In this document: piece by piece, positions 30,214-58,400 of the stretch
How positions within the stretch are numbered: the first letter of the stretch is position 1
Layout of the letters: every line of letters begins with the position of its first letter
Assembly: GCA_031553535.1 (NCBI GenBank)
Contig: JAVBLM010000001.1
Coordinates: 129,600 to 193,599, forward strand
Direction of reading: 5' to 3'
DNA from: Bacteroidales bacterium
Lineage (GTDB): Bacteria; Bacteroidota; Bacteroidia; Bacteroidales; WCHB1-69
Length of the DNA stretch: 64,000 bases
Position numbers and translations under genes: made by a program
Notes under the pieces: generated by a model
What the model was told of the DNA's origin: nothing
The model's database searches: none
The model's input: only the letters and a program-made list of their open reading frames with translations

Positions 30214-30375
30214 CCCATAGGCATCCCTACTGTTCATCCATAGTTATCCCTACGTATTACCCGTAAGGATAACTACGGTTCATCCGTAGGCATACCTACT
30301 GACAATACGTAGGAGTAACTACTTTTCATCCATAAGATAGCTACCGGTAATATAAAGGCATACCCTAAGTATAAA
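30214..30375. repeat. Tandem array of 46-bp units (two 23-bp hairpin half-units each), about 3.5 copies
   Basis: TTCATCC recurs at 30233, 30279 and 30325. Half-units carry short stems such as GTAGG-cata-CCTAC, CGTA-aggataac-TACG and GTAG-gagtaa-CTAC. Confidence 0.65.
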
Positions 30376-39059: not shown

Positions 39060-39986
39060 ATGAACCAGCCTATAGGTGTAGAACTTGAGAATTTTGTTCG
39101 AGAAAAACATCCGAATAAGTATATTTTTAAGAATGAATTAATTATTTATGAAATTGATCAGGTTGATATGGAAATTGCAAAACAAATCCAAGAACAACCT
39201 CCAACCCGGATAAATGCGTCTTCATTCTTTTTTACGACACAAGGAGGAATGAGTGTTGATGTTGATTATCAAAAATATAGATTATCGGAAAACACGATAT
39301 TACAAATATCCAATATCCATATTCTTGACAAACTGAATTTTTCTCCTGACTTCAAAGGATATGTTCTGTTTGTGTCTCAAGACTTATTCAGCGTTATTAA
39401 AACAGAAGTTTTTTCTTTAAAATCATTAGGTTTTGAAACAAATCTTTTCCACCCTATTCTACAATTAAACAGAAAATCAACCCTCCTTCTGGAAGACATT
39501 ATTCACCGCATCCAAGGGCATATAAAAGATACAAATCATATCTTCCAGAGAAACCTCATCAAAAATGAAGTCAGCAACTTTTTGCTGGAACTTGCAGATA
39601 TGAATATTAAAAATGATAAAACTCCTGATCTTGTTTCGGAAACAAATCATAAAGAAGAGGTTTTACAGAAGTTTATCAAATTGATCATTTCGCATTGCAA
39701 AGAACAACATCTGGTCTCTTTTTATGCTTCCGAACTCTGCATGACACCGGAAAATTTATCCAGAATTATAAAAGCTATCAGTGGGGAAACTGTCAATGTA
39801 TGGATAGCAAATGCTTTGCTTGCTGAGTCGAAAATATTGTTGAGGAAACCTAAAATGAGCATTCAACAAGTGGCACAGGAATTGAATTTCGGAAATCAAT
39901 CTTCTTTTGGGAAATTCTTTAAAAAACACACTGGGAAAACCCCACTGGAATATAGAAGTGATGTCCTTTCAGATAAGGGAAATTAG
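39060..39986 (+). CDS. AraC-family transcriptional regulator
   Basis: C-terminal double HTH (ASELCMTPENLSRIIK... IQQVAQELNFGNQSSFGKFFKKHTGKTPLEYR). Confidence 0.85.
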   Translation: MNQPIGVELENFVREKHPNKYIFKNELIIYEIDQVDMEIAKQIQEQPPTRINASSFFFTTQGGMSVDVDYQKYRLSENTILQISNIHILDKLNFSPDFKGYVLFVSQDLFSVIKTEVFSLKSLGFETNLFHPILQLNRKSTLLLEDIIHRIQGHIKDTNHIFQRNLIKNEVSNFLLELADMNIKNDKTPDLVSETNHKEEVLQKFIKLIISHCKEQHLVSFYASELCMTPENLSRIIKAISGETVNVWIANALLAESKILLRKPKMSIQQVAQELNFGNQSSFGKFFKKHTGKTPLEYRSDVLSDKGN

Positions 39987-40046: not shown

Positions 40047-40301
40047 GGTGTATGACTATATCGTACTTTTGCGTACGAAAGTATCGTTCCACTGCGTACG
40101 TATGTATTGTCCACCTGCATATGCTTGTATCATACTATTTCTTCAATAAACGGACAAATATTATACAATAAATCCATGGAAAGCGAGTTAGGTATACACT
40201 CAATAGACATGAATGTGTCTCATTTAGCTGCCGGGATTTATTTCTACTCCATGGAATTCAACGGACAGAAGATCACCAAGCGAATGAGCATTAAACGATA
40301 A
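40047..40301 (+). pseudogene. Remnant of a T9SS cargo gene: C-terminal sorting domain fragment only
   Basis: ...LYHTISSINGQILYNKSMESELGIHSIDMNVSHLAAGIYFYSMEFNGQKITKRMSIKR* parallels the last ~55 aa of the 2772-aa protein (HVHSISGKLLY...AAGIYIYSMEFNGQRIVKRMSIKR*). There is no body of the gene upstream. Confidence 0.75.
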
Positions 40302-40325
40302 AATCTTTTTCATAATTCAAATTGT

Positions 40326-40355
40326 GGCTGCCTCCCCGGCAGCCTTTTTTATTTT
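40326..40355 (+). terminator. Intrinsic terminator (module copy 2 of 3)
   Basis: GGCTGCC-tcccc-GGCAGCC followed by ttttttatttt. Confidence 0.8.
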
Positions 40356-40449: not shown

Positions 40450-40541
40450 CTTAGGCTCGGAAGCTATTTCCGCTTAGGCAAAGAAGATGCTTCCGCTTAG
40501 GCTCGAAAGGTATGTTCGCTTAGGCTATGATGATACTTTAG
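40450..40541. repeat. Tandem array of four 23-bp hairpin units
   Basis: CTTAGGC recurs at 40450, 40473, 40496 and 40519. Stems are CGGAA/TTCCG, GAAG/CTTC and CGAA/TTCG. A further 2-unit 23-bp repeat (tatcgtacttttgcgtacgaaag / tatcgttccactgcgtacgtatg) is at 40061-40106. Confidence 0.7.
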
Positions 40542-40839
40542 ATTAAAATCCTCCATTCGGGCAAAGCCTCTCCCTTCGTAATGATGCTTTTTACTGTTTT
40601 CTGCATGTTGCTTATTGCACACTCTCTTCCTTTCCGGATTGGTGCATTACATGTAAGAATATCAATTTTCATCTTTCAAATTGAATTAGCATGAACAATC
40701 AAGACTAATTTCACGCATAAATCGAACGTTATTGTCGACTTTTTTATATTTATTTGATTTTTTCTCATTCACTAACAAATACATACATTTTATTGTGCGA
40801 TTATTTTACACAAATGCTCATACCATTCATATTTTATGT

Positions 40840-40847
40840 ATTTTTGC
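40840..40847 (+). promoter_or_regulatory. -7 promoter box (TAttTTTG) upstream of the leader-repeat array
   Basis: Exact TAnnTTTG match. I could not find any other exact match between 40302 and 41780. Confidence 0.3.
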
Positions 40848-40921
40848 TTCGTAGAAACAAAATTATGAGACAAAGATGAAGAAAACATAATTAATAAAGT
40901 TATTTACAAAAATAAAAAAAG

Positions 40922-41780
40922 ATGGAAAAGGTTTTTATTTTTAAAAAAGGTTTTATTATTGTTGACTATACTCCATTCGTCAAGCGAAAGGTTTTTCTTT
41001 ACTAGAATTTAGTCCTTGCTATTCAAGGGCTAAAAAAGTTACTCTTATTCCTATTCCTTAATAATCTTAAAGAATTATTTTCTTTAAACTATTTACAGGT
41101 TTAGCTATAGTGTTACAAGTATTGCTTATTTGTATACTTAAATTCTATCAGAATAAGGAGGAAGCTGAAAATCCTAATTTACAACAGAGTAAGCATAATA
41201 AATAAAAATAAAACAAGATGAAGAAGGTTTTTATTATTATCGACGATACCTATTTCGTCAGGCGAAAGATTTTTCTTTACTAGAATTTAGTCCTTGCTAT
41301 TCAAGGGCTAAAAAAGTTACTCTTATTCCTATTCCTTAATAATCTTAAAGAATTATTTTCTTTAAACTATTTATAGGTTTAGCTATAGTGTTACAAGTAT
41401 TGCTTATTTGTATACTTAAATTCTATCAGAATAAGGAAGAAGCTGAAAATCCTAATTTACAACAGAGTAAGCATAATAAATAAAAATAAAATAAGCCATG
41501 ATGAAGAAGGTTTTTATTATTATCGACGATTCCCATTTCGTCAAGCGAAAGGTTTTTCTCTACTAGGTTTTAGCCCTTTATATCTAAAGGCTAAAGAAGT
41601 TACTCTTATTCCTATTCCTTAATAGTCTTAAAGAATTACTTTCTTTAAACTATTTACAGGTTTAGTTATATCACTACAGGTATTATCTATTTGTATACCT
41701 AAATTGTATCAGAATAAGGAGGAAGCTGAAAATCCTAATTTATAACAGAGTAAGCATAATAAATAAAAATAAAATAAGCC
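40922..41780 (+). repeat. Three head-to-tail copies (296, 280/283, 283 bp) of the giant gene's upstream region plus its first ~20 coding nt
   Basis: ATG(ATG)AAGAAGGTTTTTATT occurs at 41218, 41498 and 41781, and in diverged form (ATGGAAAAGGTTTTTATT) at 40922. The intervening sequence is collinear in all copies. Confidence 0.9.
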
Positions 41781-44700
41781 ATGATGAAGAAGGTTTTTAT
41801 TTTTGTGTTAGGAATATTATTTCTTAACTTAACAGGACATTCCCAATCGGGAGTTCGAAAATGGATAGAGGATTTCGACGGAAGTACAGTTTCGTATGCC
41901 CAGAATCCTCAAGGCTCATGGGTGTTTAACACCGATTATTATCTTCCCAGCTTGAGCGGGTCGAGTGTATCAAAGTCTTATTTGGGATTTGTTCCCAGCA
42001 GAGAGGGAGATACAATTATTTTACAAACCGCCAGTGCATATGATTTGAGTAATTACGACTATGTTCAGTTACGCTTCAGTCACATTTGCAAGGTTTCCCC
42101 CATGGATATTGCAAAGATACAATACCGTATAGCCGGACAACGGTTTTGGGAAGACATCGATCCTGCTGACTATAAAGGAGGCGCTTCTAATTACACAAAA
42201 GCAAGAGGGTTTAATGCTGCAAGTTATCCCGAATGGCAAGCCAGAGACAGTACGGTTATTCCAATGCAATCGTGGTGGAAAGAAGAATTTTTCGACCTGA
42301 CTGTCAACATAAAGAAAATGAGTGGAGTGGAAATCCGTTTTTTGATTATACACGGGGATGTCCCACACACGCAGGCTTCTTTTGGCTGGCTACTGGAAAA
42401 CATCCAGTTAACGGCATCTACCCATGAATTAAGCCCTCCTATCGTAAAGTTCATCCCGCCATCGGTAAAAAATACCGTATATACTACCGGCCCTCATGAA
42501 ATAAATGCGAAGGTAAAAACCACTACCAACGCTCCTATCAAACATCCCTGGCTGAAATATACGGCAACCGAACCCGGTAAACCCGCCGTAACAGATTCCA
42601 TATCAATGACAAAGATAGCAGGAGATAGCTTGTGGAAAGCTACCATACCGCAATATATAGCAGGTACGAAAGTTGAATATTCTATTACAGGAAGAGACAC
42701 TATAGGAAATGAGGCAATCGATATGTCTGGATATGTGATAGTAAGGCCATCGGGAGGAGATAAAACAGGTTATGTCATAGTAGGTACCGGAACAACAACC
42801 ACCTCAACTTATTATTTTCCGGTAGGCCAATATTATGGTACCAGTTGGTCACGACAGATATATTTAGCCTCCGAACTAAATTCTACCTCTGCAGGAGGAA
42901 TAATTACAGAGTTCGCATGGGATTACGCCTCAAGCGGCACATTTAGTAAAACGAATCAATACTGCTATTTTCAAGTGGTAGATGATGTTGCAACTGTTTC
43001 AGGATATACAGATCCTGTTGCCAATGGAGCTACTTTAGTATGGTCGGGCACTTTTTCTGCCTCCGGCGGGCGTACATGGATAAATCTACAATTAGACCAG
43101 CCATTTTATTTACCCCCCGGAAAAAATTTGATGGTGTATTGGATAAATAATAATGGCACATCATATACTTCAACAACCTTATTTAATGGAACCTCCACCT
43201 CGCCAACAAACAGAACAATCTATGCAGGTGCTTTTAGTACAGTTTTTCCATCTACAAGTACCGGAACTCTCACGACAAACAGGCCCAATGCACGTTTTTA
43301 TATTATAGGGACTCCCCCTCTTAATTACTCCGCAGGAACTTTTTCTATAGATATGTCCGATACAATAATAGTATCTCCCGGACTAAGTGTTCCTATTGTG
43401 GCAACAATAAAAAACAAAGGGAAATCGAATCTGGATTCGGTGACGGTATCGTATTCTATCAATAATGCTGCTCACGTATCGAAAAAACTATATTTTAATC
43501 CGGGCTTGCCGTGGGATCACAATTACCAGGATACCCTGGGATATTATGTTCCCGGAGCAGCGATAAACAATGCTATTACCGTATGGATTTCATCTCCCAA
43601 TGGCGTACATGATTCCACTACCTGGGATGATACCTTAACAAAAAATGTATATGGAAGCAGTGATCTACTGGTAGCATTTGTTAGCCCGCCGGCTAATACC
43701 GTATATACCACCGGTCCATATGGGATAAAAGCTTCTATAAAGAGTATTACCGGAGCTGCACTCCCTGTCACTATTTCCTTACATGTAGATTATACCTATC
43801 AGGGAGTAACCACCAGTGATGTATTGCCCATGCTGTTGGATGCATCGGATAATTTATGGAAAGCCACCATACCCCAAAAACGCTTTAACAATCATGTTGA
43901 ATATTCAATTAGCCTGATAGATATAGTGGGTAATACTGTCGTCTTATCAAATAGCTATGATATCAAACGTTTGTGCGAAGGAACATCTAAGGGCTGCGAT
44001 ACCAATTCGGTGGGATTGGTTTCTATCGATTCACCGGAAAAAACAGGAGTACTCGCAGGCTATGATAAACCGGTACGGGTAACGTTGAAAAACAAGGGAG
44101 TGGCAGACTTGGATTCCTGTTATCTCAATTGGAGCCTCAACGGAGTACAACAACCGGGCACAGCTGTCTATAGAGGGCCATTGCCGGATGATTTTACCGA
44201 TACGATTACCGTAGGGTCGTACATGCCTGTAGCGAATCAAAGGGATACGATAAAGGTATGGGTAAGCATGCCCAACGGGAAGGTAGATCCTGTTAAAACG
44301 GATGATACATTGACGGTATCTCCATTGGGATGCGGAACTATTTTATCGGGTTATCACCAGATAGGGGAAGGCAGAACGTATACAAAATTGACCGATGTGT
44401 TAAATATAATACGTAATTGCGGAGTAAGCGGAAATCTTATTTTGCAGTTGAAAGGAGAACATCCGGGTGCGGATTTGAATGGCATATCGAATTATCTGCA
44501 AGGATATACTCTAACAATTACCTCGTATGATAATGATCCGGATAGTGCTAGAATAAAGGTTACCAGCGGAGCCGGCATTACACTCAATAACAGCAACAAT
44601 ATTGTAATAAAAAGCATTACTGTCGATGCAACCAAAGCATCGTATGCGATTCAGTTTACGGGAACATGCACCAATGTGGTCATACGCGATTGCAAGTTAT

Positions 44701-47700
44701 TAACCGATACTGCTTCTACAGCAACTACAGTAGCTCCTATCTATAAAGCATCTGCTACAGGAGTAGTAGACAGTATATTTATTATCCATAATCTTTTAGA
44801 TGGGGGATACGATGGGTTTAGTTTCTATGGAGCTCCGTCAACTTCCGTTTATGGGACCAATGTAATATTTGACAGTAATATAGTTCGCAATCAATCTCAT
44901 TACGCTTGCGCTCCGCAACATGTTGATTTTATAAGTTACTCTCATAACACCATATTGAGCAGAACTGCAAATATAGCCACAGCATGGCATGGCTTACGGG
45001 CAGTTTATTGCAATGGTCCTATTATTGGCAACCGCATACACCAACGCAATACAGGTATTACAAGTCCCGATGGAATACTAATACAATACTATAATCAATA
45101 TCCGGCTTCCAAGCTTCATCAAAGGACATTGGTTGCGAATAATGAAGTCATTACATCTCCAACCGGTGGTATTTCCGCACTACATTTCACTTCGGCAAAA
45201 GCCGAATGTATAAATAATTCTCTACATGTATCCGGAAGCGGCAATGCATATGGAATTTATATTGTCAATTCAACAATGAATGATCTGGCCATTAAAAACA
45301 ATAACATTGTCATGACAAGTGCTACCGCTCGTCCAATAGAGTTTAGCGGTACAGGCAATCTGCAATTATATGATATTGACTATAACAATTTATATGCCCC
45401 TACAAATATAGGGTTTTATGGGGTACTTATTACCTCAATGCAGACCTGGCAGCAAACAATACCCACCGATCGTCATTCAAAAAACATTATGCCTGTTTTT
45501 GTAGATCCGTCAATGAAAACAAGTCTGGAAATAGTTAAAGATTTACGCTTTTTATGCAATGTAATACCACCTGTTATAACGGATATACGTGGTAATATAA
45601 GGGCTGTTACTACAACTATGGGATGTTATGATGTGGGTTCTTACCAAGCAAATGCCACACTTTGGGAAATTACAGGGCTAACCGACGGACATACCCCGGG
45701 ACAAACAGAAGATGTTAATGTGGTTGTATTTAATACCGGAGAAGACGACATAACATCTATCAACCTGGAATGGTCGGTGAATGGAACATCAAAAGGAAGT
45801 GCAAATCATCCGGTATCATTATCCAGAGGCGACTCTACAACAATTATGGTAGGACAACTCACCTACCCGTCGGCAAATGTAACGGTAAAAGTGTGGATCA
45901 ACAATTTGAATAATGATCCCCAATTGGACGAATATGCCGGGGATGATACAGTGAGCCGGTTTGTTAATGTTTGTAACGGAGGAGGCTATAGCGGAGTGGT
46001 AAAAGTAGGCAAGAGTGTGGGAGCTTTCCCCTCTTTTGAAGCGGCTTATCAAGCATTGACCTTATGTGGTGTATTAAGCAATATAACGATTGAAATTGAG
46101 CCGGGTACATATCCGGATAACCTGAGCATATCGAATAATGCAACCGCATTTGGGACTCATAAGCTGACAGTTACTTCTTCCACTTCCAATGCAAGTGATG
46201 TAATCGTTAATTCTACCATACGCATTGAGAATGCAACCAATGTTACCTTTAAAAACATAACGGTAGACGTAGATTCTGTAAGTAATGCCTGTGGGATTGT
46301 ATTTGCAGGAACCTGTTCTAATATTGAAATAAACGCATGTACTATTCTGGCTGATCCGACAACAACTTCTTCTACTGTCCATGGAATATGGTATAATAAT
46401 ACAAATGGTTCTGGAAATCAAATTTCAAATATATCCATTATTAATAATACGATAGATGGAGGATATTGTAATGTTTATTTTAATTATTTAGGTGGGGCTG
46501 TTGGGCAAGGTTTGAATAATATAATAGATAATAATATTTTCTTGCGAGCCTGTAGCAGCGTATATATTATTCAATACGGACATGTGAGAAGTGTATCCAA
46601 TAATACCATTATTACTCGAAATACAAGCACTCAACAATATGGCATACATTTCAGGACGAATACCTGTGTGGATACGATTGCAAATAATAAAATCTTAATG
46701 CAGGGAACAGGCACATGTTACGCATTAGATTTGTATGAACAAATAAATAGTACAACCAATGGGGCTACCCATCCGGTATTGCTTGTCAATAATGAAATAC
46801 GTCATCTTGCATTGTCAGGAGGAACTTATGGAATACTTATGTACCAAACACGGGCAGATATCTTGCATAATTCTGTTTATTTCAAAGGGACATCAAGTGC
46901 TTATGCTATGTATATAAATAATACAAGAACAACCGATTACCTCAACATTAAGAATAACATCTTTTCAGTGGAAACTTCTGGAGCGGGATATCCACTTTAT
47001 GTAAACACAGCTACACATGTTACACAAGCCTTTAATACATTTATGGATTATAATGATTATCACAATACAGGTGCTAATTTTGCTTATTTAGGAGGAACTA
47101 CTATCACAACATTACCTGCTTTGCAGACGGCAACAGGCCAGGATGCCAACTCGGTAAGTGTAAAACCATTGTATATAGATACCGCTGTAAGCCTGGAATG
47201 TTCCTCGTATGATGATAAGATGGAGTGTCCTTTGCCTAACGGTGTTACGACCGACATAGAGGGAACTACCCGCCTGTTAATCACCACAATGGGGGCATAC
47301 ACCGATCAACCGGTAGGATTGGATTTAAGGGCTCAGGCAATTACACCCTGGAATACAAAAGTAGTAAAGGATCAGGTAGTTCAGGTAAATTTAAATGTAG
47401 CCAGCGGCGGGACAACACCTGTCTCTTCTGCCACCTTCGGCTGGAGTTTGAATGGACAAACCCAACAAACCGGTATTCCATGGAATCCTGCCCAGCCATT
47501 GGGATTAGCACAACAAGCCAATGTTACCATAGGCAGTTTCACCGTTACCAATACTACCAATACATACAATATAGTAGTGTGGATAGAGCGTGCCAACGGG
47601 CAACAGGATATGAAACAGAAGAATGATACGGTAAGAACATCCGCTACACTTGTTCCTTTGGCAGAGTGGGTAAAACCATTTAATGGGGATACAATATCCA

Positions 47701-50099
47701 TCCTTTCTTTTGATGTACCTGCAATTATATATACGAGTACAGGTGCTCCTCAAACTCCACCGGAATTAATAGTTGTTACAACAATCGGTACGTCTGTTTT
47801 CCAGAATACAGCACCTATGACATTGTCGAATGGTGTATGGACGGCGAATGTTCCGCAGCAATATTACGGAAGCAAGGTTGTATATTCTCTGAATGTCTCG
47901 GACACAAAGAGTAACAGTATTTCTTTGAAGGATTCGGTTTATATAATTTCCGGTGTGGGGACAGAACTCTATACAGGCCATGATTTAGCCGTATTCTCAC
48001 TGGTATCCCCGGTAACGAATCCTGATGACCTCTGCGTTCCGAATTATTTACCGGTGCAAGTACCCATTCTTAATTTGGGAGAGGATGATTATGATTTTAC
48101 ACAGGATTCCATAAAAGTATGTGCAGAGATCATCGATCCTAAAGGGTTTATTCATTCGATAATACATACTGTCAAGACGGGAACATTAGAGTCGGGACAT
48201 ACCGATACTGTAGAAATAATGTCCGCTTTGCCGGTGTATGCCGGTCTCTATAAGATTAAAACATGGGTAAGCAGTTCTGTAGATCATATTATATATGATG
48301 ATACATTAATTACCACCTATGCATCACCCAAAATAGGTTTACCTCTGTATACGAACTTCAGTACGGGCATTCCTATCGAATTTGTTTCTTCTCCGAGAAA
48401 TGGTAATAGCGTATGGGAACATTACTATGACCCAGGTTCTACCGTTCAGCCCGATTCGGGAACAGCGATGATACGGTTTAACGGCACTCCGGGTTCGATA
48501 GCACGTTTGAGTACCGGTCAATTGGATTTGTTCCAAGCCTTCAATCCCTTTGTAGAGTTCTGGTATTACCATGACGCGACAACATCAACCAGTGACTATA
48601 CGAATACGGAGATCAATGTATTAGTGAATGATGTAAGGCATAATATAGGTACAATCTATTTGAAAGATTCGTCAGGCCGTCACGGTTGGACACATTATAA
48701 ATATGATCTAAGTGCATTTACGACGGTTAATGCCTGTATTTTGATACAGTTTGAATCTATCAATAAGTATTCGGGTTCCGCTCAGCATATAGATTATATA
48801 GGAATATCTTCCGAACCTGACGCAGCTGTTTCTGGGATCATTATAACCCCTGCACCTGATTTATGCCATCGTTCGAACAAGAATATTTCTGTGGTATTGA
48901 CAGCTACCCGCTCCCAGGCAATACATTTTGACAATGCATCGGCTTTGATACTGGACATGAATGGAATTATCCATACTGTTTCCTTACAGGGCATAGTTTT
49001 AGATGGCAATAGCTCTGATACAGTACCCGTATTATCCAATATTACTATCCCGGTTGGAATTACTGACATGAAAGCCTATTTTAATACTCCGGTAGATAAT
49101 ATCCATGCCAATGATACGGCTGACCTTTCATTGGATATACGTCCTGCAATGTCTCTAACGGCGCAATCCATATCAGGAGGAACGAATTGCCTGGCAAAAG
49201 GGGGACCGGCGCAACAAGAAGTGAAGATAAAGAATATGGGTAATATAGAGATTCCCGGGATTGAGTTGGTATTAAATGTAATGACTTCTCCTCAACAAAC
49301 CCTTACAAAATCAGTAGGGAATTTGGCTCCGGGAGATTCTGCTATTATCCTCTTCGATGCTTATACCGTTCCTGCCGAGGCACAATATCAGGTACAGATA
49401 GCAGGATATATGAGTTGTGATTCGGTTTTGGTAAACGCCAGCACTCCTGTCACGGAATGCGTAGATATGGATGACCTTGTCCTGGTAGAAACCTTAAGTC
49501 CCGATCCTCTGGATGGAGGGATCGATCAGGTTGGTTCTACCAAGGAAATAGAAGTTTCCTTAACGAATACAAGTGATATGAAAAACTATCAGAACGTGGA
49601 TGTTACTACATTAATCGAGAATGCGAGCGGTCAGATACTGGCCCGGCATGTAGATATTATCCCTGCAGTTAATGTCTCGGAAAGTAATAAGCCGTTTAAA
49701 TTCACAGACAAGTACACCGTTCCTAACGAGGGAGTATATTATGTAAGGGTGTTTATAAGCAAAGTAGATAATTATCAGGAAAATGATACGATTCTGATAA
49801 CACGTACTACATCAAACAACTTACAGGGAACAGGGAATAATGTCTTTGCAATGGAGCAAAATATCCCCAATCCTGCCAATACCGGCACGACAATACGTTA
49901 TCATATACCGGAACCGGGAGAAGTAGTTTTCCATGTTCACAGCATAAGCGGTAAATTGCTGTATACCAAAGTACTGCAAGCCGAACCGGGAAAGCATACT
50001 ATAAATGTAAACACAAGTAGTTTTGCCGCAGGAATCTATATTTACTCCATGGAATTCAATGGACAACGGATTGTTAAGCGAATGAGCATCAAACGATAA
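41781..50099 (+). CDS. Giant (2772 aa) T9SS-secreted surface protein with jelly-roll, Ig/FN3-like and CARDB-like domains and two right-handed parallel beta-helix modules
   Basis: Signal peptide MMKKVFIFVLGILFLNLTGHSQ. Repeated CARDB-like segments (...NKG..DL.S..L.WSLNG...). PbH1-type repeats (NNSNNIVIKSITVDA..FTGTCTNVVIRDCKLL; FAGTCSNIEINACTIL). MAM-like jelly roll near the C-terminus. Type A T9SS C-terminal domain. Confidence 0.9.
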   Translation: MMKKVFIFVLGILFLNLTGHSQSGVRKWIEDFDGSTVSYAQNPQGSWVFNTDYYLPSLSGSSVSKSYLGFVPSREGDTIILQTASAYDLSNYDYVQLRFSHICKVSPMDIAKIQYRIAGQRFWEDIDPADYKGGASNYTKARGFNAASYPEWQARDSTVIPMQSWWKEEFFDLTVNIKKMSGVEIRFLIIHGDVPHTQASFGWLLENIQLTASTHELSPPIVKFIPPSVKNTVYTTGPHEINAKVKTTTNAPIKHPWLKYTATEPGKPAVTDSISMTKIAGDSLWKATIPQYIAGTKVEYSITGRDTIGNEAIDMSGYVIVRPSGGDKTGYVIVGTGTTTTSTYYFPVGQYYGTSWSRQIYLASELNSTSAGGIITEFAWDYASSGTFSKTNQYCYFQVVDDVATVSGYTDPVANGATLVWSGTFSASGGRTWINLQLDQPFYLPPGKNLMVYWINNNGTSYTSTTLFNGTSTSPTNRTIYAGAFSTVFPSTSTGTLTTNRPNARFYIIGTPPLNYSAGTFSIDMSDTIIVSPGLSVPIVATIKNKGKSNLDSVTVSYSINNAAHVSKKLYFNPGLPWDHNYQDTLGYYVPGAAINNAITVWISSPNGVHDSTTWDDTLTKNVYGSSDLLVAFVSPPANTVYTTGPYGIKASIKSITGAALPVTISLHVDYTYQGVTTSDVLPMLLDASDNLWKATIPQKRFNNHVEYSISLIDIVGNTVVLSNSYDIKRLCEGTSKGCDTNSVGLVSIDSPEKTGVLAGYDKPVRVTLKNKGVADLDSCYLNWSLNGVQQPGTAVYRGPLPDDFTDTITVGSYMPVANQRDTIKVWVSMPNGKVDPVKTDDTLTVSPLGCGTILSGYHQIGEGRTYTKLTDVLNIIRNCGVSGNLILQLKGEHPGADLNGISNYLQGYTLTITSYDNDPDSARIKVTSGAGITLNNSNNIVIKSITVDATKASYAIQFTGTCTNVVIRDCKLLTDTASTATTVAPIYKASATGVVDSIFIIHNLLDGGYDGFSFYGAPSTSVYGTNVIFDSNIVRNQSHYACAPQHVDFISYSHNTILSRTANIATAWHGLRAVYCNGPIIGNRIHQRNTGITSPDGILIQYYNQYPASKLHQRTLVANNEVITSPTGGISALHFTSAKAECINNSLHVSGSGNAYGIYIVNSTMNDLAIKNNNIVMTSATARPIEFSGTGNLQLYDIDYNNLYAPTNIGFYGVLITSMQTWQQTIPTDRHSKNIMPVFVDPSMKTSLEIVKDLRFLCNVIPPVITDIRGNIRAVTTTMGCYDVGSYQANATLWEITGLTDGHTPGQTEDVNVVVFNTGEDDITSINLEWSVNGTSKGSANHPVSLSRGDSTTIMVGQLTYPSANVTVKVWINNLNNDPQLDEYAGDDTVSRFVNVCNGGGYSGVVKVGKSVGAFPSFEAAYQALTLCGVLSNITIEIEPGTYPDNLSISNNATAFGTHKLTVTSSTSNASDVIVNSTIRIENATNVTFKNITVDVDSVSNACGIVFAGTCSNIEINACTILADPTTTSSTVHGIWYNNTNGSGNQISNISIINNTIDGGYCNVYFNYLGGAVGQGLNNIIDNNIFLRACSSVYIIQYGHVRSVSNNTIITRNTSTQQYGIHFRTNTCVDTIANNKILMQGTGTCYALDLYEQINSTTNGATHPVLLVNNEIRHLALSGGTYGILMYQTRADILHNSVYFKGTSSAYAMYINNTRTTDYLNIKNNIFSVETSGAGYPLYVNTATHVTQAFNTFMDYNDYHNTGANFAYLGGTTITTLPALQTATGQDANSVSVKPLYIDTAVSLECSSYDDKMECPLPNGVTTDIEGTTRLLITTMGAYTDQPVGLDLRAQAITPWNTKVVKDQVVQVNLNVASGGTTPVSSATFGWSLNGQTQQTGIPWNPAQPLGLAQQANVTIGSFTVTNTTNTYNIVVWIERANGQQDMKQKNDTVRTSATLVPLAEWVKPFNGDTISILSFDVPAIIYTSTGAPQTPPELIVVTTIGTSVFQNTAPMTLSNGVWTANVPQQYYGSKVVYSLNVSDTKSNSISLKDSVYIISGVGTELYTGHDLAVFSLVSPVTNPDDLCVPNYLPVQVPILNLGEDDYDFTQDSIKVCAEIIDPKGFIHSIIHTVKTGTLESGHTDTVEIMSALPVYAGLYKIKTWVSSSVDHIIYDDTLITTYASPKIGLPLYTNFSTGIPIEFVSSPRNGNSVWEHYYDPGSTVQPDSGTAMIRFNGTPGSIARLSTGQLDLFQAFNPFVEFWYYHDATTSTSDYTNTEINVLVNDVRHNIGTIYLKDSSGRHGWTHYKYDLSAFTTVNACILIQFESINKYSGSAQHIDYIGISSEPDAAVSGIIITPAPDLCHRSNKNISVVLTATRSQAIHFDNASALILDMNGIIHTVSLQGIVLDGNSSDTVPVLSNITIPVGITDMKAYFNTPVDNIHANDTADLSLDIRPAMSLTAQSISGGTNCLAKGGPAQQEVKIKNMGNIEIPGIELVLNVMTSPQQTLTKSVGNLAPGDSAIILFDAYTVPAEAQYQVQIAGYMSCDSVLVNASTPVTECVDMDDLVLVETLSPDPLDGGIDQVGSTKEIEVSLTNTSDMKNYQNVDVTTLIENASGQILARHVDIIPAVNVSESNKPFKFTDKYTVPNEGVYYVRVFISKVDNYQENDTILITRTTSNNLQGTGNNVFAMEQNIPNPANTGTTIRYHIPEPGEVVFHVHSISGKLLYTKVLQAEPGKHTINVNTSSFAAGIYIYSMEFNGQRIVKRMSIKR
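44000..47300 (+). repeat. Two copies of a ~1.65-kb CARDB + beta-helix supermodule (protein-level repeat) inside the 2772-aa gene
   Basis: The marker motif F.GTC(T/S)N..I..C.(L/I)L occurs at about 44652 and about 46300 (spacing ~1645 nt). Each copy is preceded by a CARDB-like W(S)(L/V)NG segment. Confidence 0.7.
49836..50096 (+). other. T9SS type A C-terminal sorting domain of the 2772-aa protein
   Basis: NNVFAMEQNIPNPANTGTTIRYHIPEPGEVVFHVHSISGKLLY...AGIYIYSMEFNGQRIVKRMSIKR. The N.PNPA start and G.Y......NG......K.... end are typical of Por_Secre_tail domains. Confidence 0.8.
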
Positions 50100-50122: not shown

Positions 50123-50151
50123 GGCTGCCTCCCCGGCAGCCTTTTTTATTT
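50123..50151 (+). terminator. Intrinsic terminator (module copy 3 of 3)
   Basis: GGCTGCC-tcccc-GGCAGCC followed by ttttttattt. Confidence 0.8.
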
Positions 50152-50154
50152 CAC

Positions 50155-50460
50155 AGGTTTCCTTGTTATTCGAAGGCATAGCTCCATGTTGTTTTAAAGA
50201 AGTCCATAGGCACTACAAGGTTGGGAAAGGGATATTCATTCTTGTTTAAAGATGTCCCAAGGCTGGGAAAGGGATTTTCATCTTTGTTTGGAGGTGTCCC
50301 AGAATTGGGAAAAGGATTTTCACTCTTATTTGAAGGTGTCCCAAAGTTGGGAAAGGGGTTTTCATCCTTGTTTAGAGATGTCCCAGAATTGGGAAAAGGA
50401 TTTTCACCCTTATTTGAAGGTGTCCCAGGGTTGGGAAAGGTTCATGCAGCTATTACAAGG
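50155..50460. repeat. Tandem array, about 7 units of exactly 42 bp, two hairpins per unit
   Basis: TGGGAAA recurs at 50222, 50264, 50306, 50348, 50390 and 50432, with one or two degenerate units to the left. Unit: tgggaaagggattttcatctttgtttggaggtgtcccagaat. Hairpin TCCCA-gaat-TGGGA. Confidence 0.9.
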
Positions 50461-50575
50461 GAAAATAATACAATATATCTTTAACCTCCTATCAAAAAGA
50501 AATATATTCCGGTCATTATAGGACTATCTTTGCATCAACTTTTGATAATTTTATTACAAGTATTTAATATTTGTT

Positions 50576-50583
50576 TATATTTG
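50576..50583 (+). promoter_or_regulatory. -7 promoter box (TAtaTTTG) upstream of the TPR-LuxR regulator gene
   Basis: Exact TAnnTTTG match 27 nt upstream of the ATG at 50610. Confidence 0.35.
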
Positions 50584-50609
50584 TATTTCATATTTTCGAG
50601 AACATTATA

Positions 50610-52286
50610 ATGATAAAATCATTTTTCTTCAAAAAAGCTATCTTATTGTTATTGATGCTATTTCCGATTATCGGTCAAGGAAATAATAATCGCTCCTATT
50701 GTGAAGAACTTCTTGAGCAGTCGAAAAAAGAACGTATTGAGGGGAATTATATAAAATCCATAGAACTTCTCTCCGAAATTAAAGTGCTTTCAATAAATAA
50801 TGACTGGACAGATCTGCTAACGTATGCCCTCAATATTGAAGGTACTATCTATATGGATTTATTGGATTATCAGAAAGCAATGGAATGCTTTCTATCCGGC
50901 TATGAAATCGCTATAAAACAATCCTATAAAACGCAGCAAATAATGATATTGAACAATATCTCGCAGATATATTACATTAATAATGAAACAGACAAAGCAA
51001 AAGAATATCTTGATAAAGCATATGAAATATCCGAACAACTACAAGACAGTGCAAAACTAGGAATCGTGAGCATGAATCTGGGTGTAGTTTTCAATAAAAC
51101 CGGGGATCTCAACCAGGCGGAAAAATATCTGGATATTGCTATCAAATTGTCAAGTAAAGTAAAAGATACGATAACATGGATCGCATCAAAAGTAATAAAA
51201 ATAGAGAACCTGTATCTGAAAAAAGAATACGATAAGGCAGAATCACTGGCACTGGAAATTCTGGAAGAGACCCAATCTGAAATGGATGATGATCAGAATG
51301 CACAGTGTTTGCTATTGCTTTCCCAGATCCACGACCAAAAGAAAAACTATCCCAAGGCCATTTCATATGCCCGTGAAGCACTAAACAATCATGTTAAGTT
51401 AACACTAAAGATCGAAATCTATGAACAATTATCAAAATTATACAGGAGTAATAATGCTCTGATTTTAGCTCTCGACTATCAAGATTCTTTATCCATAGCG
51501 AAAGATTCGTTAATGAAAATAAATGATATGGCACAAGTGGCCAATAATCAAATACGCTTCGACCTGATTAATTCTGAAAAGGAATTAGCAGAAAATAAAG
51601 CAAAACAAAAGACGGAACGAACCTTCTTTATCTTTGTTGTTATTTTTATGATCATACTTTCTATTATCGCTATATGGATATACCGTATTAAGCTGGAAAA
51701 AAATAAGCAACAAAAGATAATCGCAGAGAATGAACAAAAGATCATAAAGTTAAAACTGGAAAAAGAACAAAACGAACGTTTATTATTAGAGCAACAATTA
51801 AAAGAACAAGAAACGCTATCATTATTGGAACAAGAAAAACTAAACAATGAAATCGATACAAAAAACAGACAACTTGCATCGAAGGCCTTATTCCAATCGA
51901 ACAGAAATGAATTGATCAAAGAAATTATCGACACCTTTTCCAATATTGTATCAAACAAAGTAAAAAACGATGTACTTGAGTCAGCTATTCAACAATTGAG
52001 ACTGCAACTAAAGGAATCTGCGGAATGGGATGGTTTTTTAGTCTATTTCGAGAAAATCAACCCCCTGTTTTTATCATCCTTAAAAGAGAAGCATCCTACA
52101 CTCAATGCCAGTGAAATCCGGTTCCTTTCCTATATTTACCTTAACCTGGACACAAAAGAAATTGCCAAACTATTAAATATTACCCCGGGACATTGTAGAA
52201 AAAAACGGTTACGGCTTGCCAATAAGATGCATGTATCCATAGCTGAATTATACAGCTACCTGATAAATGAAATAGATTCAAATTAG
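50610..52286 (+). CDS. Membrane-anchored one-component regulator: signal peptide, extracytoplasmic TPR region, TM helix, coiled coil, LuxR-type HTH
   Basis: MIKSFFFKKAILLLLMLFPIIGQG. TPR-like repeats over ~300 aa. TM helix TFFIFVVIFMIILSIIAIWIY. Coiled coil KLEKEQNERLLLEQQLKEQE. C-terminal LNASEIRFLSYIYLNLDTKEIAKLLNITPGHCRKKRLRLANKM. The track start at 50571 is TTG. Confidence 0.8.
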   Translation: MIKSFFFKKAILLLLMLFPIIGQGNNNRSYCEELLEQSKKERIEGNYIKSIELLSEIKVLSINNDWTDLLTYALNIEGTIYMDLLDYQKAMECFLSGYEIAIKQSYKTQQIMILNNISQIYYINNETDKAKEYLDKAYEISEQLQDSAKLGIVSMNLGVVFNKTGDLNQAEKYLDIAIKLSSKVKDTITWIASKVIKIENLYLKKEYDKAESLALEILEETQSEMDDDQNAQCLLLLSQIHDQKKNYPKAISYAREALNNHVKLTLKIEIYEQLSKLYRSNNALILALDYQDSLSIAKDSLMKINDMAQVANNQIRFDLINSEKELAENKAKQKTERTFFIFVVIFMIILSIIAIWIYRIKLEKNKQQKIIAENEQKIIKLKLEKEQNERLLLEQQLKEQETLSLLEQEKLNNEIDTKNRQLASKALFQSNRNELIKEIIDTFSNIVSNKVKNDVLESAIQQLRLQLKESAEWDGFLVYFEKINPLFLSSLKEKHPTLNASEIRFLSYIYLNLDTKEIAKLLNITPGHCRKKRLRLANKMHVSIAELYSYLINEIDSN

Positions 52287-52372: not shown

Positions 52373-52452
52373 TCTTATATAAATAATGGAAAAAGATTTT
52401 TTCTCATTTTTGTAAAGATATTCTTATTAATCTTTTACAAATTTTACGTGTT

Positions 52453-55400
52453 ATGAAAAAATGGATGTTTTTATTACTGGTAACTTTAATTTCTCTACAA
52501 GCAAGCTATTCTCAAAATGTTTCTTATGAAAGAGAAAATTTTGATGGAAACAGTATCAGCTTTGTTTCTCAACCTTCCTCGTCATGGAGAATTGACAAAA
52601 ATTACTATGTAAGTTCTCCTAATTCTTATCGAGGTGTTGTCCCCAATAAGTCAGGAGACTCAACGATTTTAACCTCTCCTCCTTATGATTTTTACACGAA
52701 TGGTTATTCCAATATATTACTTCGGTTCAACCATATCTGCAAAATATCTCCCCGGGATATCGTCCGGATAGAATATAAGATTCAAAATCAAGGCTGGCTT
52801 CCAATACCGGCAACTGCTTATTTGGGAAAAGCCGCCAATTATATAACCACCGGATTCAATGCCGCCAGCTATACTCAATGGCAAGCCAACGATAGTACAG
52901 CCCTTCCTACAAACAACTGGTGGAAAGAAGAAACATTTGACCTGGGCTTTTTAATGGGATATGCCCCTAATGCTCAAATCCGGTTTATTATAAAGCACGG
53001 CAGTACACCCGGAACACAAATTTCATACGGGTGGCTACTGGACAACATTGAGATAACTGCTTCCACTTATCTGGTTCGGGATCCTATTGTAGAATTTATA
53101 GGTAGTGTTGTAAAGGACACCGTTAACAGTACCGGGCCTTATACTATAAATGCAAAAGTACAAACCACAACAAGTGCTCCAATTAAGACCCCTTTCCTGA
53201 CATATACATATACTTTGAATGGAGTATCTACTACAAATTCCATCGAAATGGATCCTGTATCCGGGGATTCTTTATGGAGAGGTGTTTTACCTCAAATTGA
53301 AGGAGGAAGCACTGTTTCGTATTCCATCACAGGCTATGATACAAATGGGAATAATGCAACAGTACAAGAGCGTTATTTCATTAAGAAACCCTCCGGCAAT
53401 GATAGTGTTTCAGTTGCATTAACAAGCATAAACTCTCCCGCGAAAGGAGAAAACCCAGTAGGGGCTACCCCTGTAACAGCTACATTCCGTAACAAAGGTG
53501 ATTCCACGTTAAGAGCTGTGGAGATCAATTGGAGTTTAAATGGAGTGTTGCAAACAGTACAACCTCATACCTGGACAGGGGGTCTACCCTGGGATTTTGA
53601 ACATACGGAGCAATTAGGCACCTTCAACCCTCGTTTAAGAATGTCGGATACTATTGTTATATGGGTAAACAATCCCAATGGCATACAAGACCCCAAGCAT
53701 TCGGATGACACCTTATCCATTATTACTTATGGTTGTCCAGTAGATGTATCGGGCAGTTTCCCTGTAGGGAAGAACAGTGAATTCAAAACGATACAGGAAG
53801 CTTTTAACTCTTTTCAAAAATGCAGCCCTACCGGAAATATCACCCTCGAACTGGAATCCGACACGATCCGTGAAAACTGGGATTTCTCCAATATCAATTC
53901 TTTTATGAATGGATACATGCTGACGATAACATCGTTAAAACATCACAGGGATAGTGTCGTTCTTCGTCCAAATACAGGAGGAATAGGTATAACATTGGGA
54001 AATACAAGAAACCTTACATTGGATGCGATTACAGTTGATGTTAGCCATTTAATTCCTCAGATTCCTGTTATGATGAATGTATATGCTATCTATTTCAGTA
54101 ATACATGTACCAACATTATCATTAATAATTGTAATATAAAAGCACACAAAACATCTAACTCAACTAATATACATCCAATCTTTAAAGGAAGTACAGGGCT
54201 TGCAGACAGTATTTATATAACAAATAATATCTTAGATGGAGGATATTCGGGATTTACTTTTCCCGGTGGAAATACAAATCAATATGGAAAGAATATAGTT
54301 TTTGACAGCAATACACTCACTAATCAGTATTATTATGGAATAAATGCTTCTTATACCGATTTTAAAAGCATATCCAATAACACAATTCTTAGCAGGGAAG
54401 CTGCCAATTTCAGCGCAACATGGATTGCCATATATATGAACAATGCCAACGGTAATATTACAGGGAACCGGATCCGGCAACGTAATACATCAAACATTAC
54501 CAACCCGAGAGGGATTTTCAGTTATTACCATAATTATTACTTTACGAACGACACCGCGCTTATTGCCAACAATGAAATTATAATTTATACAACCGGAGAA
54601 TATGAAGGAATACAGGTAAATTATTCCCGTTCGAAAATCATACACAATTCCATATATGTAAAAGGATCCGGATCTTCAAGAGGGATTTACATCAATGAGC
54701 CCGGATATGTTAATATCCATGTTATCAAGAACAATAATATAATTATGGAATCTGCTGCTGCATACCCTATCCAGATTTCAAAGGCAACAAATATAAGGAG
54801 TTATGATATAAACAGTAATAACTATTATGCTCCGACTTATATTGGAAATATAGGAGGAACAGGAGGGGATAAACTAACAATGGATGCCTGGCAAAAGATG
54901 GTTACAACAGACGTGAATTCCGTAAGAATCCGAAGTTCTTTCATAGACAGCACCAAAAACCTGAAGATGCGTGACTATACGGGACTGGAATGCAAGCCTC
55001 TTCCGGAAGTACCTAAAGATATTGATAATACACCGCGCCTGGGATTAACAACGATGGGTTGTTACCATTACGATCCGATGTATACGGTAAATGCAAGATT
55101 AACAGACCTCCAGGGATGGAGGGAAGGAAACATTTCGGGAGAATCCGATACGGTAAAAGTATTACTGACCAATACAGGAGCAACTCCTTTGACAAATGCC
55201 AATTTAACATGGATATTCAATGGGGCAGAAACAACAACAGCATGGTCGGGAACTTTAGCCAAAGGGGAAAGCACTACTGTCACATTAGGGAAAATAACCT
55301 ATATCTCGGGTAATTATACAATAACCGCCAGAATAGATAACTTGGGCGGCTCTTTGCAAGACGATTTTTTACAGGATGACACTACTTCCGTTTCAATATT

Positions 55401-58400
55401 TGTATGTTCATCTATATACAGTACAGGAATATATACTATCGGAAAAACAGCAAGTTCTTTTACATCGGTAGAAGAAGCTATTAAGAAGCTATCTCTTTGC
55501 GGAGCAAACGGAGACATTACACTGGAAATAAAAAACGGTACATACGCCAACACCGTCGACCTGACCGGTATTTCTTCTTTGTTAGGGAACAATAAATTGA
55601 CCATCAAATCCCAAAGCGGAAACCCCGGAGATGTTATTCTACAAACAACCAATATCGGATTTACATTAGCACGAAGCAATAACATTGTAATAGATGGCGT
55701 AACAATAGATGCAAAGGGAGGAATAGTAGGCATACAGTTTTTAGATACATGTACAAATGTTGTCATTCAAAATTGTATATTATTGGTTGATACAACCGTC
55801 ACATCCAACAAATATGGTGGGATTTATAAGCCCAGTATTGCCAATGTTGCAGATAGCATCTTTATACTAAATAATATTATAGAAGGAGGGCATTTTGGGA
55901 TCTGGCTTTATGGTGTCAGCTCAAGTGTCTATGACAGTAATATTTTTATAACCGGTAATGCTATCTCCAAACAATCACATTATGGAATTTATTTATATTA
56001 TACTGATTTTAGAATTATATCAAACAATATAATAACAAGCAGATTGTCCAACATAAATACTTCATGGACAGGAATAAATACTTCAAATACGAATGGAGAC
56101 ATTATTGCAAATAAAATAAAACAATTAAACAGGGCAATATCATATGCAGTAGGAATAAGTCTTTCAAATCATAATAATAACAAAACGGAGTTAGCGCTGA
56201 TTGTAAACAATGAAATAAATGGTTATGTGGGAAATGGTTATGCTGCATTAGCTCTTTCAAGTACTCGTGCCGATATTATACATAATTCTATATATGTTCG
56301 AAGAGTTGCAGGTTCAAAGGGTATTGGTATAAGTGACGGAACCAGTAATCGTCTCAATATTAAAAATAATAATATTATAATGGACACTACGGGTACCTTC
56401 CCTATCTATATTAATGGTTCTTCAAATGCAGCTTTGTATAACTTTGAATCTAACAACTATTATTCGCCAAGTTACATAGGATACGCAGGTGCAAATAAAG
56501 TAACAATGGAGCAATGGCAAGATGTGTTCTTTACAGATATTAATTCCGTAAAGGTTCGTCCTACCTTTATAGACAGTACTATTAATTTAAAATTCATAAA
56601 TTATGACAGTGTAAAATGTCCTGTTTTGTCAGATGTTGATACCGATTTGGAAGATAGCATCCGGGCAGGGGCATTTACAGCAATGGGATGTTATCATGGA
56701 TTTGCACCTTTTTCGAAGAATATTAAACTAACGGAAATCCTTAATTGGAATGAAGGGCCAGTCTATGGAACAAATGATACGGTTAAGGCTGTAATTATAA
56801 ATACCAGTTTATCCTCTTTCTTGCCACAAACTATTAATTGGTCTTTTAATGGAAATTCCAGAACAGGAGTTCCATCAAACAAGACATTGGCATATGGGGA
56901 AAGGGATACCATTACGTTAGGAATAATAAATTACGGTTTGGGACATAATATATTAACTGCATGGATCGATAATTCTCAGGACAATTATCTCGAAGATGAT
57001 ACGATACTGGCAACAAGTTATATATGTTCTACAGCCGGAATTAACGGTACTTTCACGGTAGGAAAAACAGGGGATTTTAAAACCATAAATCTTGCACTAC
57101 AACAAATAGAAGACTGCGGAGTAAATGGAAATATTATACTGAAAGTACAACCCGGCCTGTATGTTGAAGACATAGACTTAACTGACTATGCTTTAATATT
57201 AGGTAATAATAAATTGACGATTACCTCTACTACAGGAAATGCTGAAGACGTTGTTTTTAAAACACTGTCAGTGGGAATGATATTGTCCCAAAGTAATAAT
57301 ATCGTTATAGATGCCATTACAATTGATGCAACAAAAGGGAAGTTTGCAATACAATTTAAAGGCGCTTGCACCAATGTTGTAATTAGTAATAATATTCTAT
57401 TAGCAAACCTAACTACAACTTATAGCGATTATAATCCTATACATAAAGGTAGCAATACAGGTGTAGTTGATAGTATTTTTATTGTAAATAATGAATTAAA
57501 CGGAGGATATATTGGTTTTAATTTTATTGGAGGAGTAGCTTCGACCCTTGGAACAAATGTGGTTTTTGACAGTAATCGAGTTTTCAATACACATACTTCG
57601 GGAATATATCCGCAATATACTCATTTTACCAGTATTTCGAATAATACCATATTAAGCAGAACGGAAAATACAATAACCAGTACATGGTATGCAATGCGTT
57701 TTGAAAGTTGCAATGGCCCCATTACAAATAACCGGATAAAACAACAAAGTAATGTGATTGCACAACCTTACGGAATATATCTTAATAATTATAGTATCAA
57801 TTCAACAGCAGATACTGCATTGATTGCCAACAATGAAGTCATGCTTAATGTTGCAACAGGTACAACAGGTGGCATATATACAAATGTTTCCCGTACAAAA
57901 ATTATCAATAATTCCATTTACGTATCCGGTGCTGCTGCAGCAAGGGGAATGTATATTGCTAATGATAATAATAGCCGTACTGTCGCAAAAAACAATAATA
58001 TTGTTGTGGCATCTTCTTCTGCATATCCTATTTATCTGAATTACGTAACCAATATGAGTTTATGTGATCTGGATTACAACAATATGTACGGCACCGGATA
58101 CGTGGGATACTGCGGAAGTACCGGAGGTGCAAAAGCCACCATAGATGCCTGGCAACAATTTGTTACCAGTGATAAGCATTCAGTGAGTGTTTATCCGAAT
58201 TTTATTGATCTTACCAAAAATATGGATCTATTGGATAGTGTATTGAGTTGCCCTGTATTTGAAAATGTTACAGAAGATATAAATAAGAATACTCGTGTTT
58301 CTCCCAACACTACAATGGGTGCATATCAATATATAGGTACAACACACGATGTCCATCCTGTTGAATTTGTAAATTTATCTCCAACTTATCCGCTTGGAAC

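Follow-up and report, generated by a model that had tools for sequence, protein, structure and literature searches.

A tandem triplication of a 5′ expression module with a DUF805b RNA motif upstream of a giant type IX secretion cargo gene in a Bacteroidales genome

The tandem array and its leader motif

The DNA analysed here is a 64-kb stretch (“the window”) of the genome of a Bacteroidales bacterium (GenBank assembly GCA_031553535.1, contig JAVBLM010000001.1, positions 129,600 to 193,599), and all coordinates are positions in this window. It encodes a giant cargo protein of the type IX secretion system (T9SS), which belongs to a large family of proteins of 2,300–4,700 amino acids (aa) from uncultured Bacteroidales. 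The gene is preceded by a tandem array (Table 1). Tandem Repeats Finder (TRF) placed an array with a period of 283 nucleotides (nt) at 40947-41801 (3.0 copies, 91% matches, score 1414), and a gapless repeat finder returned three 275-nt copies, at 40943, 41221 and 41504, with identities to the first copy of 95% for the second and 87% for the third. The same program detected a 39-nt block (A-rich leader end, ATG and AAGGTTTTTATT) four times, at 40904, 41200, 41483 and 41766, the last of these being the true start of the giant gene. A preliminary description of this DNA had reported a tandem repeat that includes the start codon of the giant gene. Both programs bear this out, and the ATGs at 40922, 41218, 41498/41501 and 41781/41784 confirm its periods of 296, 280/283 and 283 nt. 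The head-to-tail units, of 296, 283 and 283 nt, span 40922-41783 and end at the real start of the gene.

Table 1. Coordinates of the array, its elements and associated features in the window
Feature	Position	Strand	Remarks
Orphan T9SS sorting-domain tail without gene body, ending in GIYFYSMEFNGQKITKRMSIKR and a stop codon	40130-40344	+	85% identical to the tail of paralog P0014
Exact −7 box TATTTTTG, candidate outermost promoter P0	40839-40846	+	Regular-expression scan; 83 nt before the ATG at 40922; no motif after it
Left-edge partial copy	40904-40942	+	Last ~18 nt of the A-rich leader, ATG and ~18 nt similar to the gene start; family at 82%
Unit 1 (U1)	40922-41217	+	296 nt; 18-nt in-frame duplication inside, near the start; divergence within the array is highest in its first ~50 nt
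Small open reading frame (ORF) 1	40922-41005	+	27 aa, MEKVFIFKKGFIIVDYTPFVKRKVFLY then stop; ORF listing
Hairpin after small ORF 1	41008-41034	+	−12.7 kcal/mol; no T-run, not scored as a terminator
−7-like box CTTATTTG in unit 1	41125-41132	+	Two mismatches to TAnnTTTG; 32 nt before the motif GGAG
DUF805b motif copy 1	41155-41195	+	Rfam 36.5 bits (above the gathering score); own model 67.5 bits
Unit 2 (U2)	41218-41500	+	283 nt; mosaic; five private substitutions
Small ORF 2	41218-41283	+	21 aa, MKKVFIIIDDTYFVRRKIFLY then stop; ORF listing
Hairpin after small ORF 2	41286-41312	+	−12.7 kcal/mol
−7-like box CTTATTTG in unit 2	41403-41410	+	Two mismatches to TAnnTTTG (T and A both absent)
DUF805b motif copy 2, GGAG changed to GGAA	41433-41473	+	Rfam 33.5 bits (below the gathering score); own model 63.6 bits
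Small ORF 3	41498-41566	+	22 aa, MMKKVFIIIDDSHFVKRKVFLY then stop; ORF listing
Unit 3 (U3)	41501-41783	+	283 nt; gene-proximal; 30 substitutions and 0 indels relative to unit 2
Hairpin after small ORF 3	41568-41596	+	−9.2 kcal/mol, bulged; kept through 9 substitutions
−7-like box TCTATTTG in unit 3	41686-41693	+	One mismatch to TAnnTTTG; 32 nt before GGAG
DUF805b motif copy 3, native leader of the giant gene	41716-41756	+	Rfam 39.7 bits; own model 68.1 bits
Giant T9SS cargo gene	41781-50099	+	ORF of 2772 aa; signal-peptide-like N-terminus; C-terminal Por_Secre_tail

The repeated module comprises ~215 nt of lineage-specific upstream DNA, a DUF805b RNA motif, an A-rich initiation region of 22–25 nt, the ATG and the first 6–7 codons of the gene. 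The duplicated segment reaches 21 nt into the gene, so that every upstream unit opens an ORF of 21–27 codons; these small ORFs are an accidental by-product of the duplication end-point. Their stop codons adjoin hairpins, lying ~2 nt ahead of each. A terminator scan of 40900-41800 revealed no terminator-like site, and none between the units.

The A-rich partial unit end that had been described before 40922 is also present, with a local alignment score of 46 (shuffled sequences: mean 21.6, maximum 33). It has ATTTTT as in the real gene, whereas units 2 and 3 have ATTATT. A decayed fourth full unit farther upstream was considered and rejected: global alignment of 40839-40903 with the equivalent promoter/leader part of unit 3 showed no significant homology (p = 0.17), and the homology is confined to 40904-40942. 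No further copies of the unit were found in the rest of the window. Among 122 loci, homologs were found for the motif part of the unit only and none for its first ~215 nt. The unit is therefore local intergenic DNA, and a mobile element or dispersed repeat is ruled out.

When the whole window was scanned with Rfam, the matches belonged to one family only, DUF805b (RF02914); each unit has one, and the remainder of the 64 kb has none. DUF805b (clan CL00115) is a candidate cis-regulatory RNA of Bacteroidales from a comparative screen (Weinberg et al., 2017; PMC5737381). The main text of that paper, so far as it was accessible, is silent on the family, and literature searches for DUF805, DUF805b or the motif sequence returned nothing usable beyond the Rfam entry. 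Each copy in the array has the full RF02914 consensus, consisting of a 4-bp stem, the loop GGAAGCYGAAAA and the 3′ box AGAGUARGCA, and the outer stem pair covaries (A-U with C-G) across the window and its type-A relatives. The copies were scored with the Rfam model, whose gathering score is 35.6 bits, and with a covariance model of our own built from the first motif instances. The G-to-A change in the GGAG of copy 2 need not be inactivating, as judged from the single leader of locus L122, which has the same GGAA. From the end of the motif to the ATG there are 25 nt in units 2 and 3 and 22 nt in unit 1.

We fetched 80 loci from species-representative genomes by alignment of the conserved N-terminal domain of the family; all are metagenome-assembled genomes (MAGs) of Bacteroidales from termite gut, rumen or digesters. 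Rfam's own model detected DUF805b above threshold in three of them (L002, L006 and L026). With our covariance model, 20 copies were found in the 80 loci, each of them single and ending at the ATG of a giant paralog; two of them, on the minus strand, precede divergently oriented giant paralogs. Locus L120 (GCA_003324365.1, found by exact-protein look-up) has the window-like gene order of giant gene, tetratricopeptide repeat (TPR) gene and giant gene, with one motif for each giant gene, and L121 has a motif before one giant gene. The closest relative by N-terminus, in a Prevotellaceae MAG (L122, 62% identity), has one motif and a near-identical 3′ leader, GCATAATAAATAAAATAAAAAAATGATG. At all 24 of the 24 giant genes of motif-bearing relatives that we examined, the motif occurs once, 19–35 nt before the ATG. 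TRF found no similar array before homologous genes in the 80 loci; a 207-nt array in L053 was rejected as a comparable case, being coding repeats of another protein. The second giant paralog in the window, which starts near 52450, has no DUF805b leader.

The motif was also found in 38 IMG/VR phage contigs (L082-L119), many of them ~100 kb in length, where it lies 21–37 nt before diverse small ORFs. The proteins encoded behind it include an HNH endonuclease, phrog_24909 and proteins without assignment. One phage contig (L105) has two copies ~920 nt apart. We conclude that Bacteroidales and their phages use the motif as a generic leader element; it is the normal leader of the giant-gene family, and only in the window does it stand in triplicate.

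The stem of RF02914 is only partly retained in the more distant type-B sequences. A long-range helix of 3 bp, between GCY in the hairpin loop and a downstream RGC, is paired in 23 of 23 sequences (alignment columns 17-19 with 57-59; in unit 3, 41726-41728 with 41751-41753). It occurs in the variants GC/AU/GU and CG/UA/UG/AU and is the sole helix predicted by RNAalifold. The Rfam consensus structure line shows the 4-bp stem only, and this pseudoknot-like contact may be unannotated in Rfam.

In combination, these results indicate that the array arose by tandem triplication of a complete 5′ expression module, and that it is genuine, lineage-specific and fairly old. It is not a random repeat, because the DUF805b motif is found in each unit and before the giant genes of relatives. 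The triplicated leader unit of the preliminary description is thereby upheld, the motif standing in each unit at the distance from the ATG seen in single-copy relatives. Duplication has carried motif, A-rich spacer and ATG along as a set, and none of them was lost afterwards, which makes it probable that they are one functional module.

Divergence and history of the units

The units differ from one another by 5–13%, and are 7–20% apart outside an exchanged tract. Copies 1 and 2 had been described as almost identical. This is correct for an internal tract of ~184–238 nt, in which unit 2 is unit 1-like, but not for its first ~52 nt and last ~9 nt, which are unit 3-like; the differences between units 1 and 2 lie mainly in the first ~50 nt. 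Across 41560-41743, 24 consecutive informative sites group unit 2 with unit 1, and those of the first ~36 nt and the last informative site group it with unit 3. The informative sites are thus a mosaic, with 5 runs observed against 16.3 expected (runs test, p < 5e-5), and we conclude that the units have recombined. Stepwise and partly recent duplication, as initially suggested, is compatible with this exchange, but the mosaic tract is bounded on both sides, and gene conversion between units 1 and 2 therefore accounts for it no less well than the creation of unit 2 by unequal crossing-over. The exchange was not very recent, as unit 2 has five private substitutions. In unit 3-equivalent coordinates, private substitutions in the array fall at 41534, 41544, 41552, 41657 and 41721.

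The longest identical runs between units are 104, 40 and 36 nt, and that of 104 nt is shared by units 1 and 2. Given this shared run, turnover of the unit copy number is possible, but it appears to be slow. RecA-dependent loss limits the lifetime of unselected tandem duplications, and the array is therefore probably old relative to the lifetime expected of an unselected 283-nt tandem duplication.

At the junction of units 2 and 3, where GAAGAAGGTTTTTATT meets ATTATCGAC, the sequence can be read as the gene start joined to AAAAAAGGTTTTATTATTGTTGAC, which stands at the start of unit 1. Both the gene start and the ancestral left edge (40946-40957) have AAGGTTTT(T)ATT, and the junction lies inside this shared sequence. 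The junction would fit a microhomology-mediated tandem duplication, with one more event required for the extra partial copy at 40904-40942.

Comparison of units 2 and 3 revealed changes at 2 of 68 sites in the leader and at 28 of 215 elsewhere (Fisher p = 0.022). The changes concentrate in the hairpin, which still folds, and between TTTA(G) and the −7-like box. As far as can be read from these patterns, the evidence of constraint on the upstream units is only suggestive.

Collapsed tandem paralogs were considered as the origin of the units and rejected. The tails of the small ORFs, compared with 120 family tails, gave BLOSUM62 local scores not above those of shuffled sequences, and at the DNA level a comparison with the 3′ ends of the giant gene and of a paralog remnant upstream of the array was not significant. 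The units are not collapsed paralogs, because the small-ORF tails have no similarity to the conserved sorting-domain tail. A search for other copies of the unit among metagenome contigs, using a 22-mer of the unit against 241 million records, returned one chance match (L081). The protein cluster of the giant gene has one member, and a search with its N-terminus returned only the relative with 62% identity.

Promoter elements and possible function of the array

Promoters of the Bacteroidetes housekeeping sigma factor have the elements TTTG at −33 and TAnnTTTG at −7. The preliminary description had placed the sole exact TAnnTTTG upstream of the array, at 40840-40847. On the plus strand between 40300 and 41780 there is indeed only one, and it is upstream of the array, but its location is 40839-40846 and a second exact box is found within the giant gene. 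The latter (TATTTTTG, 41798-41805) lies in the first codons of the gene; the corresponding sites of the upstream units either have been altered to ATTATT or no longer have the last G. It is probably a coincidence of T-rich signal-peptide codons.

Each unit has a −7-like box (Table 1). The NNNNTTTG sites on the plus strand of the 1.5-kb intergenic region are these unit boxes and two farther upstream, with no others. In 12 of 12 type-B relatives an exact TAnnTTTG starts 24–35 nt before the GGAG of the motif; the near-match in the window is at −32. Based on the usual position of such a box, the type-B placement would put the motif ~10–20 nt from the predicted mRNA 5′ end. The box at 41686-41693 in unit 3 is the most likely candidate for the proximal promoter element, and from the boxes at equivalent positions we infer one promoter per unit.

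We tentatively favor the possibility that the array works as additive tandem promoters and leaders rather than as a switch. Each unit would still act as a start module, with a weak promoter at its (T/C)(C/T)TATTTG box; the motif would lie close to the transcript 5′ end, and translation would begin efficiently at the unit's own ATG. Transcripts from the upstream units would encode a short peptide and then read through into the giant gene, as no terminator separates the units, and so add to its mRNA.

Several findings weigh against this possibility. The triplicated promoter that had been proposed is represented by near-match boxes at −32, but no unit has the exact −7 consensus, and the boxes of units 1 and 2 lack both its T and its A. 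Motif copy 2 is under the Rfam gathering score. Relatives with the motif subtype of the window mostly have no exact box within 1 kb. All 24 giant genes of motif-bearing relatives have a single module, so that extra copies are not needed by the family. Finally, the clustering of substitutions is significant by sites (p = 0.017) but not once neighbouring changes are counted as single events (p = 0.58).

The same findings make it quite conceivable, if somewhat doubtful, that the array is an inert relic, in which unit 3 alone drives the gene and units 1 and 2 are neutral leftovers with decaying boxes and motifs. The boxes of units 1 and 2 have two mismatches where that of unit 3 has one, motif copy 2 is altered in the near-invariant GGAG and falls below the Rfam threshold, substitution events are not significantly clustered, and every relative has one module. 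Neutral decay has to be reconciled, however, with a divergence of 5–13% that was reached without loss of the array or damage to any motif, ATG or small ORF. Moreover, the GGAA of copy 2 is shared by L122, whose only leader is presumably functional, and the leader of units 2 and 3 was spared relative to the rest of the unit (2 of 68 nt changed, 28 of 215 elsewhere). Transcription only from the distal box at 40839-40846 is unlikely. It would give a 5′ untranslated region of ~0.93 kb with three motifs and three upstream ORFs that exert a post-transcriptional effect, for instance by diverting ribosomes or a motif-binding factor as decoys. This box is the sole exact TAnnTTTG on the plus strand between 40300 and 41780, and no terminator lies between it and the gene. 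Yet the placement of the box in all 12 type-B relatives puts the motif near the mRNA 5′ end rather than deep in the transcript, the region of the distal box has no homology to the unit, and next to it is only the motif-less partial copy. In addition, the RNA of the unit is not unusually structured, folding no better than shuffled sequence (z = −1.33). The structured ~0.9-kb leader considered in the preliminary description is unsupported by this result, and we rejected a globally structured leader.

Reversible tuning by unit number appears improbable. As a long-unit dosage rheostat, the array would gain or lose whole cassettes of promoter, DUF805b leader and start codon by homologous recombination, and so set the expression of the very costly giant T9SS protein in a heritable and reversible manner, as one instance of a wider habit of hypervariable control repeats in these Bacteroidales gene families; we consider this unlikely. 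A contingency locus, in which frequent RecA-mediated gain and loss of units reversibly tunes a costly surface protein within populations, is about as doubtful. The units have recombined, the 104-nt identical run of units 1 and 2 suffices for RecA, and the upstream regions of related giant genes are repeat-rich, with 7-nt, 8-nt and 23-nt arrays and a (CA)n tract. But frequent unequal exchange should homogenise the units, which differ by 5–13% and of which unit 2 has five private substitutions, and no relative has more than one module. Unlikely to the point of being barely credible is an assembly artefact as the source of the array, whether by expansion of a single genomic unit by the assembler or by the stitching of strain variants. 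The source does resemble a metagenome-type assembly of an uncultured Bacteroidales, and the relatives are all MAGs. However, each of the three units has private differences, and unit 2, with its five, is no simple chimera. Unit–unit junctions in which the gene start is fused to a unit start would be impossible in a single-unit genome, and the sole contig in the protein database that has the giant gene is 194 kb long.

Read as additive promoters and leaders or otherwise, the array is a natural construct, which places one, two and three copies' worth of a 5′ cassette before an 8.3-kb gene. The array is useful chiefly because it gives access to an orphan RNA motif; to our knowledge, DUF805b has no known function in any context. 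Arguably the more useful by-product is the finding that giant T9SS cargo genes of gut Bacteroidales have DUF805b as their standard leader, that phages use it as well, and that it contains a covarying pseudoknot-like helix. The idea that motif, spacer and ATG form one module bears on how Bacteroidetes mRNAs without a Shine–Dalgarno sequence are started or stabilised. Should the unit number turn out to vary in populations, the expression of costly surface proteins would be tuned here in a new way, one that works with long units.

Repeat-rich neighbourhood and comparison with known systems

The in-frame sorting-domain tail at 40130-40344, just upstream of the array, has the appearance of what is left of a deleted giant paralog. 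The terminator behind this orphan tail is almost identical to the one that follows the giant gene (50126-50145). The orphan tail shows an earlier rearrangement of the locus. A TPR-repeat gene (50571-52286) separates the giant gene from the second giant paralog, which extends from near 52450 to 64000 and runs off the window.

Short tandem arrays are found around these genes. Those with a 23-nt period occur in the window at 40450-40526, 40070-40114 and 30261-30344, and in L120 at 14651-14735, where the array ends 15 nt before the leader motif of a giant gene. In two of these arrays each unit holds a small palindrome, CGGAA-N5-TTCCG at 40450-40526 and ATAAAG-N3-CTTTAT in L120. The arrays may be operators for the neighboring AraC-type (39060-39986) or TPR regulators. 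Arrays with a period of 41–44 nt and two short hairpins per unit are located at 12011-12239 and 50216-50440, the latter between the giant-gene terminator and the TPR gene. Arrays of this period also occur ~1–3.5 kb upstream of giant genes in L001, L005, L006, L008, L011, L012 and L016, which suggests a conserved, undescribed repeat class. Other repeats include a potentially hypervariable (CA)~45 microsatellite ~330 nt upstream of the giant-gene ATG in L122 (3590-3677), an 84-nt direct repeat upstream of the leader in L120 (2579-2662 and 2795-2878, 216 nt apart, 94%), and two to five tandem copies of AATTTTC directly before the motif in L006, L008 and L011. Judged by these sequences, the control regions of giant genes are generally repeat-rich.

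We found no literature on such an array before T9SS cargo genes. This agrees with the earlier statement that no equivalent is described for these genes, as does the single copy at all 24 giant genes of motif-bearing relatives.

As in other DUF805b RNAs, each unit has one match to the full consensus, upstream of an ATG in a Bacteroidales genome. The array differs in that three motifs stand in tandem, whereas they occur singly in relatives and generally in the 38 phage contigs. Its downstream gene encodes a giant T9SS cargo protein and not a DUF805 protein, and copy 2 is sub-threshold.

With regard to its origin, the array resembles the products of microhomology-mediated tandem duplication followed by expansion (bioRxiv 10.64898/2026.02.28.708716) in its head-to-tail copies and in a junction within the short shared AAGGTTTT(T)ATT, but the extra partial copy at 40904-40942 is not explained by a single simple event. 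Tandem paralog clusters have been described to evolve by a unit of 3′ ORF, intergenic region and 5′ ORF (Tsuru and Kobayashi, 2008; PMC2568036). Here, too, the repeat crosses a gene boundary, comprising intergenic DNA and first codons, and the locus consists of tandem giant paralogs, one of them deleted. Unlike in that unit, the tails of the small ORFs are unlike the C-terminal sorting-domain tail of the family in both protein and DNA.

A leader-peptide attenuator would likewise have a short ORF in the 5′ region that is followed at once by a hairpin. However, there is no terminator, T-run or alternative pairing here, and the ORF is a by-product of the duplication that is absent from single-copy relatives. 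Contingency loci share with the array the tandem repeats in the control region of a gene for a surface or secreted protein, but the units here are not near-identical (5–13% apart).

By analogy, the array would work most like tandem promoters or like the repeat-controlled promoters of adhesin genes. In Haemophilus influenzae, 7-bp repeats between the hmw1A/hmw2A promoters control these large adhesin genes through repeat number. The likeness lies in the repeats in the 5′ control region of a very large gene for a surface or secreted protein. The unit here, by comparison, measures 283 nt rather than 1–7 nt and is a complete promoter–leader–start module rather than a spacer, if the inferred promoters are included. 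Because its copies are 5–13% diverged, high-frequency switching of the slippage type is not expected of it.

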